Positions 33,165-38,574 of a stretch of 64,000 nucleotides of DNA are shown here, piece after piece. Source of the stretch: a virus. Where the stretch lies: the IMG/VR virus record IMGVR_UViG_3300028392_000041, positions 47,828 through 111,827 of that record; one strand, given 5' to 3'. The notes under the pieces are model-generated. The model was not told the origin of the DNA. It did no database searches and worked only from the letters and a program-made list of their open reading frames with translations. The translations under genes were made by a program, and so were the position numbers. Positions within the stretch are counted from its first letter, which is position 1; each line of letters starts with the position of its first letter.

Positions 33165-33238
33165 TGGTTGCGGAGGGCGGAATCGAACCACCAACTGAAG
33201 CATATGAAACTTCTGAGATACCGTTTCTCTACTCCGCG
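33165..33238 (-). tRNA. tRNA-Met(CAT), initiator-like (C1xA72) but lacking the 3 G-C anticodon pairs
   Basis: Cloverleaf folded by hand; CCA encoded. Confidence 0.8.
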
Positions 33239-33243
33239 ATTGT

Positions 33244-33516
33244 TTAATATAATTTTTCAGGTAATTGTTGAGAACGAATCTGCTTGCGCCATCTTGCCTT
33301 TGCTCTACCCTTTGCCAACTTTCTTTGAATAGATGGTTTAAGATATTCCTGACGATCGCGAAGTTCTTGCAATAGACCATTCGCTTCAATCTTACGCTTG
33401 AACAGACGCAGTGCTTGTTCAAATCTACCATCTTGAACTTCTACCTTACTGCCATCGTAGCGTTTCTCTCGATGTTTACCTCTGCCGTATTCTTTTTGCC
33501 TTTGCGGTATTGTCAA
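33244..33516 (-). CDS. rpsU: Ribosomal protein bS21 with N-terminal extension
   Basis: V.V....FEQALRLFKRK....GLL.ELR.RQ.Y.KPS..RK; AGGAG SD before TTG. Confidence 0.9.
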   Translation of the reverse strand: MTIPQRQKEYGRGKHREKRYDGSKVEVQDGRFEQALRLFKRKIEANGLLQELRDRQEYLKPSIQRKLAKGRAKARWRKQIRSQQLPEKLY

Positions 33517-33534
33517 ACTATTCTCCTAAAATTT

Positions 33535-33610
33535 TGGTGCCCCTCGACAGATTCGAACTGCCGACCTTCGCATTACTAATGCGCTGCTCTACCAACTGAG
33601 CCAGAGGGGC
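33535..33610 (-). tRNA. tRNA-Thr(AGT)
   Basis: GCGCA-TT AGT AA-TGCGA; Thr-type body; CCA. Confidence 0.88.
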
Positions 33611-33621
33611 GAGTAAAGTAT

Positions 33622-34248
33622 TTATACGATTCTCATTGTGTTTATTGAACACTTAGTAAGCGCATAATTAAAACTTAATGAAATCCTACACTCATCTGTA
33701 TCTGTTGTAAATCTATCAGTACAATGTTCTAACCAACTGGGAAACAGAAGCATCAAAGCGAACTCTGGTTTGTATTTCCATGCCCTGTATGAGATTGGGG
33801 ATTCTTTTATAAAATTTCCATGCTGCATCATTTTTGCTGGTCTTGGATCTATAAAAGATATATCGCCTATATCTTTGTCAGCTGGAACATTTAAGTAAAC
33901 AACACCTGATAAAAATGAATTTGGGTGTTGATGTGTTCTGTGTCCATTTCCAGTATTTCCAATTTGAGAATTACTCCACATACAAGAAAGACTCAAAGAA
34001 TTTTGTTCTAGTCCCAATGCTTCTGTTGAGAATGATTGAACTTCATTATCAATGTGTTTAACTAATTCTTTAAATTGTGATAGTGTGTTTAGATTATCTT
34101 TGGTGCTTCCTGATAAACTTTTAGAAAGAGATTCTTTATCAAGAAGTTTTTGAACTTCTTGTTTTGCAGTTGAACATACACTATGATCTAGATTCGAGAT
34201 CCCAATAGGTGTAGCAAATAAATTATCAACTCTTCTATGCATAATATT
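33622..34248 (-). CDS. Putative 2OG-Fe(II) oxygenase (TIGR02466-like)
   Basis: HQHPNSFLSGVVY, F.DPRP, FPSWLEH, RISLSFN. Confidence 0.87.
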   Translation of the reverse strand, partial: NIMHRRVDNLFATPIGISNLDHSVCSTAKQEVQKLLDKESLSKSLSGSTKDNLNTLSQFKELVKHIDNEVQSFSTEALGLEQNSLSLSCMWSNSQIGNTGNGHRTHQHPNSFLSGVVYLNVPADKDIGDISFIDPRPAKMMQHGNFIKESPISYRAWKYKPEFALMLLFPSWLEHCTDRFTTDTDECRISLSFNYALTKCSINTMRIV

Positions 34249-34250
34249 CA

Positions 34251-34398
34251 ATTAGTTTAGTGCTATCGTGCCGATTTGCCAAAAATGTAGCTAACACTGG
34301 CGAGCGAGTGGCAGTTATATCAGACAGTGTCAGTCGCACCCTAACTGTCGAGTAGTCATAGCGTCCTATGACGATTACCTTGATAACACTAAACTAAT
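34251..34398 (-). ncRNA. Unidentified structured RNA (about 148 nt) 3' of tRNA-Gly
   Basis: 17-bp closing helix with one U-G pair on the - strand; internal hairpins; no credible ORF. Confidence 0.7.
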
Positions 34399-34471
34399 GG
34401 AGCGGGATATCAGAATCGAACTGATGACGAAAGATTGGAAATCTCTAGTTTTGCCATTAAACTAATCCCGC
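34398..34471 (-). tRNA. tRNA-Gly(TCC)
   Basis: Cloverleaf; U73; CCA. Confidence 0.9.
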
Positions 34472-34472
34472 A

Positions 34473-34708
34473 AATGCTTCCTGTCCGTCGTGGTAATTAT
34501 AGTACATCAGGATTTAGTTGGTTGTCTCTCATATCCATCACGCATACCCTCCACCCACTCGCCACGGACAGAACTCTCGTGTTGCCAACGCTGGTTAGGT
34601 CGACCCATGATTTTACTCATGCCCTATTCAAAGGGAGAACCATCCTACTGATAGCCAATCAGTTTCTCTCATGCGGATCACATTAGCAGTGGTTAGCTGC
34701 GAGCCCAT
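34473..34708 (-). ncRNA. Unidentified structured RNA (about 235 nt) with own sigma70 promoter
   Basis: TTGACA-N17-TATAAT at 34743-34715; several hairpins and a long CTGTCCGT/ACGGACAG helix. Confidence 0.6.
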
Positions 34709-34759
34709 ATAGTAATTATACCCGACTTATACTAAAATGTCAAATCGAATGCAATTATT

Positions 34760-34835
34760 TGGAGTAGGTGACAGGAATCGAACCTGCATTATTCAGATTT
34801 GCAATCTGCTGCCTAGCCATTCAGCGCACACCTAC
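34760..34835 (-). tRNA. tRNA-Cys(GCA)
   Basis: Cloverleaf; U73; CCA. Confidence 0.88.
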
Positions 34836-35417: not shown

Positions 35418-35494
35418 TGGTGTCCCCCAAGGGATTCGAACCCTCATCTTATCAATTATGAGTTGACAGCATTGACCAGTTATGCTAAAGGAAC
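35418..35494 (-). tRNA. tRNA(CAT), probably Ile2 (lysidine)
   Basis: Loop CT CAT AA; Ile2 versus Met is inference. Confidence 0.78.
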
Positions 35495-35496
35495 AT

Positions 35497-35573
35497 TGGT
35501 GCGGATACCGAGACTCGAACTCGGAGAACTCAGATTTTAAGTCTGATATGTATACCAATTCCATCATATCCGC
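35497..35573 (-). tRNA. tRNA-Leu(TAA), short variable arm
   Basis: Cloverleaf 77 nt; CCA. Confidence 0.88.
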
Positions 35574-35578
35574 AAACT

Positions 35579-35653
35579 TGGTGCCCCGAGAGGGAATTGA
35601 ACCCCCATAATGACTTTAGAAGAATCATGTCCTATCCATTGAACGATCGGGGC
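35579..35653 (-). tRNA. tRNA-Arg(TCT)
   Basis: Cloverleaf; CCA. Confidence 0.9.
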
Positions 35654-35660
35654 AATACAC

Positions 35661-35750
35661 TGGTGGAAGATCAGGGAGTCGAACCCTGTGAGCGTATTAC
35701 TACACTCTACGGATTAGCAATCCGCTGCATTACCATCCTGCCCATCTTCC
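35661..35750 (-). tRNA. tRNA-Ser(GCT)
   Basis: Long variable arm; CCA. Confidence 0.9.
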
Positions 35751-35755
35751 TAACT

Positions 35756-35829
35756 TGGCATCCCAGCAGGGACTTGAACCCCGACTAATAGTTTTGGAGA
35801 CTATCGTGCTGCCATTACACTACTGAGAT
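35756..35829 (-). tRNA. tRNA-Trp(CCA)
   Basis: Cloverleaf; G73; CCA. Confidence 0.9.
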
Positions 35830-35834
35830 ATATT

Positions 35835-35908
35835 TGGTGCCCCATGACAGAATCGAACTGCCGTAACCTGATTACAAAACAGGTGTAATACCATTATACT
35901 AATAGGGC
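35835..35908 (-). tRNA. tRNA-Thr(TGT)
   Basis: Cloverleaf; CCA. Confidence 0.9.
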
Positions 35909-35916
35909 AAAAATTT

Positions 35917-35991
35917 TGGTGGAGGATGGGAGGATCGAACTCCCACTTCATGCTTGCAAAGCACATGTGCTCCCATTATCACTAATCCCCC
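35917..35991 (-). tRNA. tRNA-Ala(TGC)
   Basis: G3-U70; CCA. Confidence 0.92.
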
Positions 35992-35997
35992 AAAACA

Positions 35998-36074
<77 letters not shown>

Positions 36075-36082
36075 AATAAAAC

Positions 36083-36157
36083 TGGCTCCGAAGGCAGGGA
36101 TCGAACCTGCGACCAATTGATTAACAGTCAACTGCACTACCGCTGTGCTACTTCGGA
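36083..36157 (-). tRNA. tRNA-Asn(GTT)
   Basis: U1-A72, G73; CCA. Confidence 0.92.
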
Positions 36158-36163
36158 ATATAC

Positions 36164-36238
36164 TGGAGCAGGATATCGGATTTGAACCGATGACATTTTC
36201 GTTGGCAACGAAACATTCTACCACTGAATTAATCCTGC
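36164..36238 (-). tRNA. tRNA-Gly(GCC)
   Basis: Cloverleaf; U73; CCA. Confidence 0.92.
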
Positions 36239-36247
36239 ATAAAAACT

Positions 36248-36322
36248 TGGTACCTTGTGACAGATTCGAACTGCCGACCTTCTCCGTGTAAAAGAGACAT
36301 TCTACCACTGAAATAACAAGGC
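36248..36322 (-). tRNA. tRNA-Val(TAC)
   Basis: Cloverleaf; CCA. Confidence 0.9.
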
Positions 36323-36325
36323 ATT

Positions 36326-36402
36326 TGGTACCGAGGGTGGGACTCGAACCCACAAGATTTAGTTTCTAAGACTAACATGTATACCAATTCCATCACCTCG
36401 GC
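36326..36402 (-). tRNA. tRNA-Leu(TAG), short variable arm
   Basis: Cloverleaf 77 nt; CCA. Confidence 0.88.
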
Positions 36403-36410
36403 ATTAACTA

Positions 36411-36488
36411 TGGTACCCCACCCCTGATTCGAACAGGGATACCTCTTCCTTTTGAGAGAAGCGACTTTACCAATTTGTCCAGTGGGGC
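36411..36488 (-). tRNA. tRNA-Leu(CAA), short variable arm
   Basis: Cloverleaf 78 nt; CCA. Confidence 0.87.
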
Positions 36489-36490
36489 AC

Positions 36491-36565
36491 TGGTACTCGG
36501 TGATGGTTACGATCCATCTACAGCTGCCTTATCAAGACAGTACCTCACCATTCGGTCTACCGAGT
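36491..36565 (-). tRNA. tRNA-Ile(GAT), non-canonical T-loop
   Basis: CTGTC-TT GAT AA-GGCAG; T-loop ATCGTAA; CCA. Confidence 0.8.
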
Positions 36566-36571
36566 ATAATA

Positions 36572-36660
36572 TGGAGGAAGGATGGTAGAATCGAACTCCA
36601 TGCGCTTTCGCACACCTTCTGCTTTCAAAACAGAGTCCAGCCCAGCTGAATTAACCTTCC
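36572..36660 (-). tRNA. tRNA-Ser(TGA), atypical (bulged T-stem, U73)
   Basis: TCTGT-TT TGA AA-GCAGA; long variable arm; CCA. Confidence 0.75.
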
Positions 36661-36665
36661 GTATC

Positions 36666-36740
36666 TGGTAGTGATAGTAGGATTCGAACCTACGATAACT
36701 TGCGTATGAAGCAAGCGCATTACCACTTTGCTATATCACT
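36666..36740 (-). tRNA. tRNA-Met(CAT), elongator-like
   Basis: Loop TT CAT AC; CCA. Confidence 0.85.
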
Positions 36741-36750
36741 AAAAACTTTT

Positions 36751-36824
36751 TGGGGTGACTAGTGGGAGTTGAACCCACACGAAGAGAATCACAATCTCTG
36801 ATGCTACCATTACATCATAGTCAC
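36751..36824 (-). tRNA. tRNA-His(GTG)
   Basis: C73; CCA; base at -1 is T rather than G. Confidence 0.87.
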
Positions 36825-36837
36825 ACCAAAAAGTTCT

Positions 36838-36911
36838 TGGTAGGGGCACAGAGAATCGAACTCTGATTTGTTGGTTAAAAGCCGACTACTTTTCCGTTAA
36901 GTTATACCCCC
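36838..36911 (-). tRNA. tRNA-Lys(TTT)
   Basis: Cloverleaf; CCA. Confidence 0.88.
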
Positions 36912-37026
36912 GAATCTTATCTAACCTGCGCAATGCTTTGTTTGTTTTGCGATGCGCACCAGCTTTTCTAAACAATGCCAGAACAACGAACTGGTTGCGT
37001 TGCTTGGCGATCATCTTTCGCTTCAT
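36886..37026 (-). CDS. Small basic protein (46 aa) whose stop lies inside tRNA-Lys (not in ORF track)
   Basis: AGGAG SD; MKRKMIAKQRNQFVVLALFRKAGAHRKTNKALRRLDKIRGYNLTEK*. Confidence 0.75.
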   Translation of the reverse strand: MKRKMIAKQRNQFVVLALFRKAGAHRKTNKALRRLDKIRGYNLTEK

Positions 37027-37044
37027 CGTTCTTCTCCTAAAAAT

Positions 37045-37120
37045 TGGTACCCCATAAAGGAATCGAACCTCTACCTCTGCGTTCGTAGCACAGTATGATT
37101 ATCCATTTCACCAATGGGGC
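37045..37120 (-). tRNA. tRNA-Arg(ACG)
   Basis: Loop CT ACG AA; CCA. Confidence 0.9.
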
Positions 37121-37126
37121 ATAATA

Positions 37127-37202
37127 TGGTACCGAGAGTAGGACTTGAACCTACCACACCTTGTGCTTCAAACAAGTGCTCTACCAGATGAGCTACCTCG
37201 GC
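37127..37202 (-). tRNA. tRNA-Phe(GAA)
   Basis: Loop TT GAA GC; CCA. Confidence 0.9.
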
Positions 37203-37210
37203 AAAAATTT

Positions 37211-37285
37211 TGGCGACTCGTAGGGGAATCGAACCCCTGTATCCTGTTAGACAGACAGGTATAATGACCATTATATGAACGAGCC
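37211..37285 (-). tRNA. tRNA-Asp(GTC)
   Basis: Loop CT GTC TA; G73; CCA. Confidence 0.9.
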
Positions 37286-37292
37286 AAAAAAC

Positions 37293-37381
37293 TGGTGGAA
37301 GTGGTAGGATTCGAACCTACAGCGTTTCTTATGTGGCGGATTTACAGTCCGTTGCCTTCAACCAATTCAGCACACACTTCC
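37293..37381 (-). tRNA. tRNA-Tyr(GTA)
   Basis: Long variable region; CCA. Confidence 0.9.
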
Positions 37382-37388
37382 AAAACTT

Positions 37389-37464
37389 TGGTACACCATG
37401 GGGGAATCGAACCCCTCCTTTTGTCTGTGAAAGAGACATGTCCTAACCGATAGACGAATGGTGC
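37389..37464 (-). tRNA. tRNA-Glu(TTC)
   Basis: Loop CT TTC AC; CCA. Confidence 0.9.
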
Positions 37465-37469
37465 ATATA

Positions 37470-37706
37470 CCAAACTAAAATACACTGGGATGATCAGCAA
37501 CAACCATCACCCGATGGCTAACCACGCTGTCGTCCAGCGATTGGTCGCTTCTCACATTACATTCCAACTTTCTCCAGCGTGACCACCGTATCCGTCTTAC
37601 GACTTCGTTTCCATCTTTCGTGTAATCTAGCGAGCGATACTCCGTCGAGTATCCTGAACTCCTAGATCACCTACTGGTTTTGGTAACCCAATGTATTTTA
37701 GTTTGG
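37470..37706 (-). ncRNA. Unidentified structured RNA (about 237 nt) between tRNA-Gln and tRNA-Glu
   Basis: 20-bp closing helix with one U-G pair on the - strand; several internal hairpins. Confidence 0.75.
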
Positions 37707-37777
37707 CAGGGGTACTTGGAATCGAACCAAGAACGACGGAATCAAAATCCGTTGTGATACCACTTCACTATACCCCA
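37704..37777 (-). tRNA. tRNA-Gln(TTG), first tRNA of array
   Basis: Cloverleaf; G73; CCA. Confidence 0.9.
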
Positions 37778-37792
37778 ACAACTATCGCGAAA

Positions 37793-37805
37793 TTTTTAAA
37801 GAGCA
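37793..37805 (-). promoter_or_regulatory. rrn-type boxA antitermination element
   Basis: TGCTCTTTAAAAA just before first tRNA; one mismatch to TGCTCTTTAACA. Confidence 0.75.
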
Positions 37806-37812
37806 GGATTGA

Positions 37813-37841
37813 ATTATACATCGAAACGAAATATAAGTCAA
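37813..37841 (-). promoter_or_regulatory. Proximal sigma70 promoter (P2) of tRNA array
   Basis: TTGACT-N17-TATAAT. Confidence 0.8.
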
Positions 37842-37869
37842 TCAATAACCCTACAAATTAGTAGGGTAT

Positions 37870-37909
37870 AAAACAAAAAACCCTCGGGACTTTCATCTCC
37901 GAGGGTTTT
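37870..37909 (-). terminator. Intrinsic terminator of putative attenuator
   Basis: AAAACCCTCGG...GAAA...CCGAGGGTTTT followed by TTGTTTT. Confidence 0.88.
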
Positions 37910-38110: not shown

Positions 38111-38150
38111 TATTTATAGTAATTATACACTCAATTTGATTAAATGTCAA
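38111..38150 (-). promoter_or_regulatory. Tandem sigma70 (TTGACA-N17-TATAAT) and T4 late (TATAAATA) promoters (P1) upstream of leader
   Basis: -35 at 38150-38145, -10 at 38127-38122, late box 38118-38111. Confidence 0.85.
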
Positions 38151-38574
38151 TCTTTTTTACATTTATTTTGCAACTATTCAGAAAATTAATTCCGTCTTCA
38201 TCACGATACGCATCACGATAATAGACTGTGTTTATTCCTGCGCCATGAACCAACTTAGCGCAATGAATACAGGGAGCATGGGTGCAGAATAGAGTACTAC
38301 CATTGCCACTTTCTCCATCACGAGCCAACTTGAGTATAGCATTTGCTTCAGCATGAATAACCTCATCTTTCGTTTTCAAAACAACAGTATCATCAGACAA
38401 CTGAACCACATTCTCGCATTCATTTGTCCAACCAGCTGGCATACCATTGTAACCAATCGAGATAATACGATTATCCTTGACTACGACAGCCCCAACTTTC
38501 AATCGCTTCGCTGAAGACAACTGAGCAAATCGTTCAGCTGTATCCATGAAGGCATCAACCCACTTCTGTTTCAA
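38140..38574 (-). CDS. cd: dCMP deaminase
   Basis: GYNG, HAEANA, PC..C. Confidence 0.92.
   Translation of the reverse strand: MKQKWVDAFMDTAERFAQLSSAKRLKVGAVVVKDNRIISIGYNGMPAGWTNECENVVQLSDDTVVLKTKDEVIHAEANAILKLARDGESGNGSTLFCTHAPCIHCAKLVHGAGINTVYYRDAYRDEDGINFLNSCKINVKKIDI

Follow-up and report, generated by a model that had tools for sequence, protein, structure and literature searches.

An rrn-type boxA element heads the tRNA array of a phage and its relatives, ahead of a putative leader-trailer helix

Antitermination by boxA and the Nus factors is textbook knowledge for the ribosomal RNA (rrn) operons and for phage lambda. In Proteobacteria, the rrn antitermination complex comprises NusB, NusE (ribosomal protein S10), NusA, NusG, SuhB and S4. 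Elongation complexes on rrn operons transcribe at twice the speed, with pausing and Rho termination suppressed (PMC8632103). boxA alone is enough to recruit the factors and to form the rrn complex, and in a looping model for 16S rRNA, NusB-bound boxA keeps boxC anchored at the RNA exit; once the trailer has emerged, the leader-trailer helix can form (PMC10250234). NusB-S10 reads only nucleotides 1-8 of boxA, according to a crystal structure (PMC3177189), and a functional consensus, GYTCTTTAANA, is available from rrn and suhB (PMC5725501). Outside rrn operons, the boxA in the 5' UTR of suhB represses translation and promotes Rho termination of the mRNA (Baniulyte et al. 2017, PMC5725501), and boxA is also found upstream of CRISPR arrays (Stringer et al. 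2020, eLife e58182, cited in PMC7862264), where it is proposed to prevent premature Rho termination. We found no paper that places boxA before phage tRNA genes, arrays or operons, a 2025 review of Rho termination included.

Here we describe a boxA-type element in a stretch of 64,000 nt (the window) from the 111.8-kb virus record of a lake phage. We think it likely that this element is a transcribed loading site for host NusB-S10 (NusE) that mimics the rRNA operon, with binding and antitermination inferred. The features of the locus are collected in Table 1. The element, TGCTCTTTAAAAA, begins after a 7-nt gap (TCAATCC) 3' of the TATAAT of promoter P2, and 15 nt, reading TTTCGCGATAGTTGT, separate it from the start of tRNA-Gln, the first of 27 tRNAs called with ARAGORN and Rfam between 33165 and 37777. 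The first-pass annotation had recognised a boxA just 3' of P2, about 15 nt before tRNA-Gln and at the head of the array; its position and description are right, with the correction that everything lies on the minus strand. The element is the only site in the whole window within one mismatch of TGCTCTTTAACAA, the E. coli rrn boxA, and exact TGCTCTTTAAMAA occurs once in the entire virus record. The consensus GYTCTTTAANA has two matches in the window against 0.5 expected; taken from this single window alone, the occurrence of boxA is only mildly unusual, and its weight comes from conservation. It is on the strand predicted to be transcribed, 3' of predicted promoters P1 and P2, whose starts are not mapped, and would lie at +1 or +2 of the P2 transcript, an extreme 5' position that Nus sites do not usually occupy. 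The minimum-energy fold predicted for the window's P2 leader leaves boxA unpaired, as do, largely or wholly, those for the leaders of three of four relatives; part of it is paired in the predicted folds of one relative's leader (L049) and of a truncated window leader.

Table 1. Features of the tRNA array and its leader (positions in the window)
Feature	Position	Strand	Remarks
dCMP deaminase gene	38140-38574		just upstream of array leader
Promoter P1, TTGACA-17-TATAAT (12/12)	38150-38122	minus	overlaps dCMP deaminase gene end; drives leader-peptide attenuator
Attenuator terminator, hairpin and T-run AAACCCTCGGAG..CCCGAGGGTTTTTTGTTTT	about 37910-37871	minus	conserved in relatives
Second small hairpin, ACCCTAC..GTAGGGT	37848..37867	minus	between terminator and P2
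Promoter P2, TTGACT, 17-nt spacer, TATAAT	37841-37836 (TTGACT), 37818-37813 (TATAAT)	minus	sigma70-like, 11/12 matches
boxA-type element TGCTCTTTAAAAA	37805..37793	minus	sequence, conservation, predicted single-stranded
Leader strand TCGCGATAGTT	37790-37780	minus	starts 2 nt after boxA
tRNA-Gln	37777-37704	minus	first tRNA of the array
Main block, 23 tRNA genes (Gln ... Met)	35418..37777	minus	~2.4 kb, one small ORF; within proposed helix
Spacer, tRNA-Gln to tRNA-Glu	37465-37703	minus	239 nt, G-rich (G 29%, C 17%), without ORF or tRNA call
HNH-endonuclease-like ORF, 184 codons	34832-35386	minus	inserted between 23-tRNA block and tRNA-Cys
Trailer strand AACTATCGCGA	35279-35269	minus	perfect 11-bp complement of leader TCGCGATAGTT
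Distal array: tRNA-Cys, Gly, Thr, Met and ORFs	33165..34835	minus	outside proposed helix
Consensus promoter of distal array	34743-34715		

The distal array thus has a consensus promoter of its own, and no boxA occurs in that segment (33165..34835). The HNH-like ORF contains the window's trailer strand, and the boxA-less consensus promoter comes after it. As a separate observation, most of the 239-nt spacer between tRNA-Gln and tRNA-Glu (37496-37663) is matched by a near-identical contig of 168 nt, with three differences, from a lake metatranscriptome run; the spacer may be another structured RNA.

Bases 1-8 of the element (UGCUCUUU) equal the E. coli rrn boxA at all eight positions and TGCTCTTTAAAAA meets GYTCTTTAANA exactly, which bears out its description as an rrn-operon-style boxA. 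The 3' part reads AAAAA, against AACAA in rrn boxA; this C-to-A difference falls outside bases 1-8 and so is not among the bases read by NusB-S10. The likely host family is the Methylophilaceae, an inference from a betaproteobacterial-type tmRNA at about 11.3-11.7 kb (ARAGORN and Rfam) and from the phage PqqA motif FGFEVTMY: a degenerate DNA pattern for this motif retrieves mostly Methylophilaceae and other methylotrophs, including a complete Ca. Methylopumilus genome. The rrn leader boxA of this family is G[C/T]TCTTTAACAA, and it shares G[C/T]TCTTTAA with the phages; agreement with a host rrn boxA, which had been proposed as a check, is thereby obtained, the host itself being inferred. The Ca. 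Methylopumilus rrn leader reads ...CCGTTCTTTAACAAATAGACAAC..., and the sole non-coding copies of the motif in that genome (GTTCTTTAACAA) are in the rrn leader and the 16S-23S spacer; two Methylopumilus-type genomes have their sole non-coding copy in the rrn leader, to which the complete genome adds the spacer copy. The Methylobacillus rrn motif is GCTCTTTAACAA, and CGCTCTTTAACAA occurs in Methylobacillus and three further members of the family. As rrn operons are missing from most assemblies, a family-wide search for rrn leaders gave matches in only 6 of 201 genomes. The C at position 3 of the window's element is the Methylobacillus and E. coli rrn variant, and the T of most phage relatives is the Methylopumilus one. 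NusB and Rho are both encoded by the candidate host Ca. Methylopumilus and neither is encoded by the phage.

No boxA-then-tRNA layout was present in five Methylophilaceae genomes or in 101 genomes of the class (~0.26 Gb). Its absence from the five Methylophilaceae genomes indicates that the phage leader is not simply a copy of one from a host tRNA operon; the bacterial sample is too small to show that the layout is phage-specific. In the single rrn operon of Ca. Methylopumilus a tRNA-Met (CAT) lies between the promoter, TTGACA-17-TATAGT, and boxA (L205:3300-3400, minus strand, Ca. Methylopumilus universalis; also L226 and L229), and the host's rrn leader itself therefore opens with a tRNA.

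Conservation was assessed in 80 related viral loci found via the dCMP deaminase gene. tRNA-Gln comes first in 33 of these, and every one of the 33 carries G[C/T]TCTTTAAAAA, GTTCTTTTACAA or GATCTTTAAAAA; with the window included, the motif stands 14-104 nt 5' of tRNA-Gln on the same strand in 34 of 34 sequences, and the pattern matches only 18 places elsewhere in ~893 kb of strand sequence. Pairwise identity of the 15-nt boxA block is 86% over 25 distinct leaders, compared with 30-36% in the two 15-nt blocks upstream, 48% in the 15 nt that follow and 67% at the 5' end of tRNA-Gln. The positional conservation ahead of relatives' arrays that the annotation had called for is therefore met, and by a motif whose flanks have diverged. 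Each relative's genome or contig has a single copy, except for one or two in G008 and three in G313. The array head always has one, even in a genome whose array is not beside the deaminase gene. In some relatives position 3 is A or T, or the motif reads GTTCATT; G-Y-T-C-T-T-T is otherwise almost invariant. boxA is not indispensable, since at least two members of the family (L007 and L079) pass from the attenuator terminator to the tRNA without it. Searches of cultured-phage nucleotide sequences with the leader region returned only tRNA similarity, and there is no cultured model.

The surroundings of the motif are far more variable. P2 is kept in a subset of relatives, its predicted -10 box lying 8-39 nt from boxA (starts are not mapped), and many relatives have no promoter nearby. 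In many of them the attenuator terminator is directly 5' of boxA; in relatives without a promoter the motif follows the terminator either directly or past a hairpin of 3 bp with a CATCGT loop, and where extra hairpins move tRNA-Gln 50-104 nt away, the motif stays on the promoter or terminator side. Because the distance to the -10 box varies, often only a terminator precedes the motif and the motif is predicted to be unpaired, we take it to be an RNA element and not part of a promoter.

Two of these hairpins may be recorded separately. The CATCGT-loop hairpin has a covarying 3-bp stem (AGC/GCT, GGG/CCC, GGC/GCC) between the attenuator terminator and boxA, a boxB-like position; it occurs in L003:5008-5030, L038, L044, L208:2590-2610 and other relatives, and is absent from the window. 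A strong extra hairpin without a T-run (e.g. AAGACTGACTGCTTCGGTGGTCAGTCTT) lies between boxA and tRNA-Gln in L049:3805-3840, L054, L059, L055, L057 and L077, and may be a processing site or a protein-binding hairpin.

The layout is not confined to this family. A collection of viral contigs was scanned for a tRNA T-arm 55-85 nt downstream of CTCTTTAACAA, with the reversed motif as control; 59 viral loci were found, against 5 for the control. A tRNA starts within 40 nt in 48 of the 59, representing 29 leader types. The free base before CTCTTTAACAA is G, as boxA requires, in 27 of the 29, the spacing between boxA and tRNA is 11-16 nt in 22, and 18 are heads of arrays of up to 18 tRNAs. The first tRNA of these arrays may be Gln, Glu, Arg, Met, Tyr, His or Ser, promoters or terminator hairpins are found just 5' of boxA, and some of the flanking genes match phage families. 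At least 25 other viral leader types have a canonical boxA ahead of their first tRNA. The tRNA genes of T4 and T5 are not preceded by a sense-strand boxA. In T4 an opposite-strand copy with one mismatch, GCTCTCTAACAA, is found 14-25 nt upstream of tRNA-Gln (L297:3035-3060).

The boxA is also part of a larger rRNA-like frame with a probable leader-trailer helix, which the earlier annotation missed. The window's trailer strand lies 139 nt after the 23rd tRNA, within the HNH-like ORF. We compared 9-kb array regions from the window and 16 relatives by ungapped-helix count, with leader shuffles and foreign leaders as controls; this count took the place of an energy-based duplex scan, in which the real leader could not be told from shuffles. 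The helix beats 40 of 40 leader shuffles in 11 of the 17 genomes, and own leaders beat foreign-type leaders where the types are unrelated. The window's own helix has 11 perfect bp, a length attained somewhere in the 9 kb by 3 of 40 shuffles; foreign leaders reach at most 9 bp in the spacer sequences. At least four unrelated leader/trailer pairs (the GCGTACCAA, CAGGATTCTGT, GGGACTTTGT and TTTATAGTTAAAC types) form 12-17 bp at 11-144 nt past the tRNA block. The helix types are as follows: AAT(T/C)TGCGTACCAA(TTT) with TTGGTACGCAGATT (13-17 bp, 123-144 nt after the last tRNA in five genomes, the trailer of this type in G308 being 933 nt after tRNA 26); ATTCAGGATTCTGT with ACAGAGTCCTGAAT (14 bp, 64-68 nt after tRNA-Gly in four genomes); TTCGGGACTTTGT with GCAAAGTCCCGAA; AATTTATAGTTAAAC with GTTTAACTATAAATT (15 bp); and GTACTAAAATTG with its perfect complement. 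Pairing is maintained by compensating changes across relatives. Among the 17 genomes, no helix was found in G306 or G315. Unrelated boxA-led lineages show the same arrangement: L254 and L284 have helices of 16-17 bp that beat 20 of 20 shuffles, and L246/L258 have one of 12 bp that is matched by one or two of 20. We regard the leader-trailer helix as well supported across the family; the window's own is probably real: it is short and, taken alone, of marginal significance, and its position matches the family pattern.

One further trailer candidate was rejected. TGGAGAGTAATG, which is complementary to boxA itself, is the acceptor stem of a tRNA-like gene left uncalled by ARAGORN, and was discarded as an artefact. 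That uncalled gene (GGAGAGTAATGCAGG...GGTTCGACTCCTCTGCTCTCC) lies directly after tRNA-Arg (L031:5922-6010 and L046:4929-5020).

A conserved ORF of ~160 codons (MRKAIDIDEV..GKDWYADY..) stands right after the last tRNA in G008 (L300), G009 (L301) and G006 (L299). It contains the trailer, which falls on the DWYADY codons in one group and on those for AQSPET in another, so helix formation or cleavage would interfere with the mRNA of the ORF. That the two commonest trailer types lie at different places in the same ORF suggests that the leader adapts to whatever sequence comes after the block.

Set against an rrn operon, the phage boxA is alike in standing just past a promoter predicted to be strong, in heading a transcript that would be long, untranslated and highly structured, and in having after it a leader strand complementary to a trailer, comparable to the boxA-boxC/16S helix or to the spacer boxA before 23S. 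It differs in that it heads phage tRNA genes and not rRNA, that it is preceded by a leader-peptide attenuator, and that no conserved boxB or boxC sequence is present. The phage helix has 11-17 bp, against 25-40 bp, its trailer is inside a protein-coding ORF, and its leader strand begins 2 nt after boxA, whereas in Enterobacteriaceae boxC lies 18-19 nt away (PMC10250234).

The conserved block could instead be no more than an element for processing or stability of the tRNA precursor, such as an A/U-rich RNase E site or the start of a stem, with no Nus loading. This is the alternative that survives best, and we consider it unlikely. It accommodates the A/U-richness of the motif, its predicted single-strandedness, its position directly beside the leader strand of the long-range helix, with overlap in some lineages, and the lack of an evident Rho threat. 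What it does not account for is the pattern of constraint: the bases of the helix vary and covary, whereas G-Y-T-C-T-T-T, mostly outside the helix, is nearly invariant, and nuclease sites have no need of GYUCUUU. Nor would a processing element be expected to equal the rrn boxA of the host family and of E. coli, to have G as the free base before the pattern in nearly all leader types of the wide scan, or to remain near the promoter or terminator when hairpins displace tRNA-Gln.

The A-rich 3' half of the window's boxA is nutL-like, and GCTCTTTAAAAATT is close to the lambda nutL boxA, CGCTCTTAAAAATT. A nut-like site for a phage-encoded antiterminator of the N type, with boxA and an adjacent hairpin in place of the host-factor-only rrn arrangement, would have this resemblance on its side, together with the small covarying CATCGT-loop hairpin before boxA or the strong hairpin after it in several relatives. 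We think this improbable: tRNA aside, no hairpin separates P2 from tRNA-Gln in the window, the hairpins seen in relatives are not shared throughout the family, and no N-like protein was identified, although no systematic search was made. The lambda nut sites combine boxA with boxB and N, and the window's family lacks a conserved boxB hairpin; their targets are mRNA operons with terminators, whereas that of the phage is a tRNA array. What the two share is the use of host NusB/S10 through boxA in a phage transcript, which for the window is inferred. An rrn boxA alone suffices for complex formation (PMC10250234).

We give very little credence to a site acting at the DNA level, either the initially transcribed region of a promoter or a transcription-factor site such as the MotA box of T4 (TGCTTTA). 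The MotA box, TGCTTtA, lies at -30 of many T4 middle promoters, with the -10 box 11-13 bp downstream. The phage is T4-like, TGCTCTTTA loosely resembles a MotA box, and the window's motif starts 8 nt after a -10 box. In the relatives this spacing ranges over the 8-39 nt given above and many have no promoter there; there is one copy per genome, against dozens for middle promoters, it is strictly on the transcribed strand, and no -10 element follows it at the MotA spacing. A search of G000, G006 and G007 gave no MotA C-terminal domain (MotCF) in two complete relatives, without a positive control.

A chance resemblance inherited through shared ancestry, which the homology of the relatives and the two consensus matches against 0.5 expected in the single window would allow, can hardly be entertained when the motif is so much better conserved than its flanks, when it leads the arrays of unrelated phages with different first tRNAs and when the reversed control gave so few matches.

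A loading site for host NusB-S10 remains our preferred reading, and from it a course of events can be proposed. Host RNA polymerase would start at P2, or at P1 with readthrough of the leader-peptide attenuator, and then copy boxA. By analogy with rrn operons, NusB/S10 bound to boxA would, with NusA, NusG and SuhB, convert the enzyme to a fast, pause-resistant and Rho-resistant form, which would finish the ~2.4 kb of almost wholly untranslated tRNA genes. boxA, tethered to the polymerase, would hold the leader strand until the trailer emerges, and the block would close as a long-range helix, like pre-16S and pre-23S rRNA, and probably be excised there; such processing is likewise inferred. The layout in the phage, with boxA, a leader strand 2 nt on, kilobases of structured RNA and a trailer, fits the published looping model closely.

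In relatives without P2 only polymerases that escape the attenuator copy boxA, so the attenuator would set the rate of entry and boxA commit those that pass. The suggestion that boxA adds a second control layer after the attenuator fits this arrangement, boxA directly adjoining the attenuator terminator in many relatives. The accompanying proposal of shielding specifically from Rho finds no support in composition. With 23% G and 19% C, the array RNA leans slightly towards G and has no obvious C-rich loading sites, none of its four longer spacers is C-rich and three are G-rich, and a scan for Rho loading sites gave only modest windows of C over G, mostly within tRNAs or ORFs, and is uninformative either way. 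Speed, resistance to pausing at tRNA hairpins and RNA looping are benefits at least as plausible as protection from Rho. Public RNA runs, seen as sparse Logan contigs, gave a few exact pieces that fall on the leader-peptide region or on some tRNAs, with 37778-37870 uncovered, and are uninformative on boxA expression or transcript ends.

Signal and machinery are both known; what is new here is the context in which they are used and the architecture around them, neither of which has been described. The nearest precedent is the boxA before CRISPR arrays, which likewise precedes a long, untranslated and repetitive RNA array outside rrn; those arrays are host-encoded, and no leader-trailer helix is known to have been described for them. 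The phage motif also meets GYTCTTTAANA outside rrn as that of suhB does, and unlike the latter has no start codon downstream. The absence of boxA from the model phages T4 and T5 may explain why the layout went unnoticed.

Because related and unrelated phages share a boxA-led layout with trailer pairing, they probably borrow the host's rRNA transcription machinery for their tRNAs, with binding and antitermination inferred. The broader proposition, that in many large-phage lineages tRNA arrays mimic an rRNA precursor, with boxA recruiting the rrn antitermination/chaperone complex, the array being looped, closed and excised, and the attenuator gating entry in the window's family, we regard as evenly balanced. 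If the borrowing is real, it would explain the rapid and complete expression of kilobases of untranslated phage tRNA genes, it would make the supply of phage tRNAs depend on host Nus factors, a link that could bear on host range or defence, and it would offer many natural compact variants on which to test the boxA-tether, leader-trailer looping model of rRNA maturation. boxA tracks the host rrn sequence and could therefore be a host-prediction marker for uncultured phages. Mimicry of the rRNA precursor, if true, would be a general and undescribed viral use of the host's ribosome-biogenesis transcription machinery.
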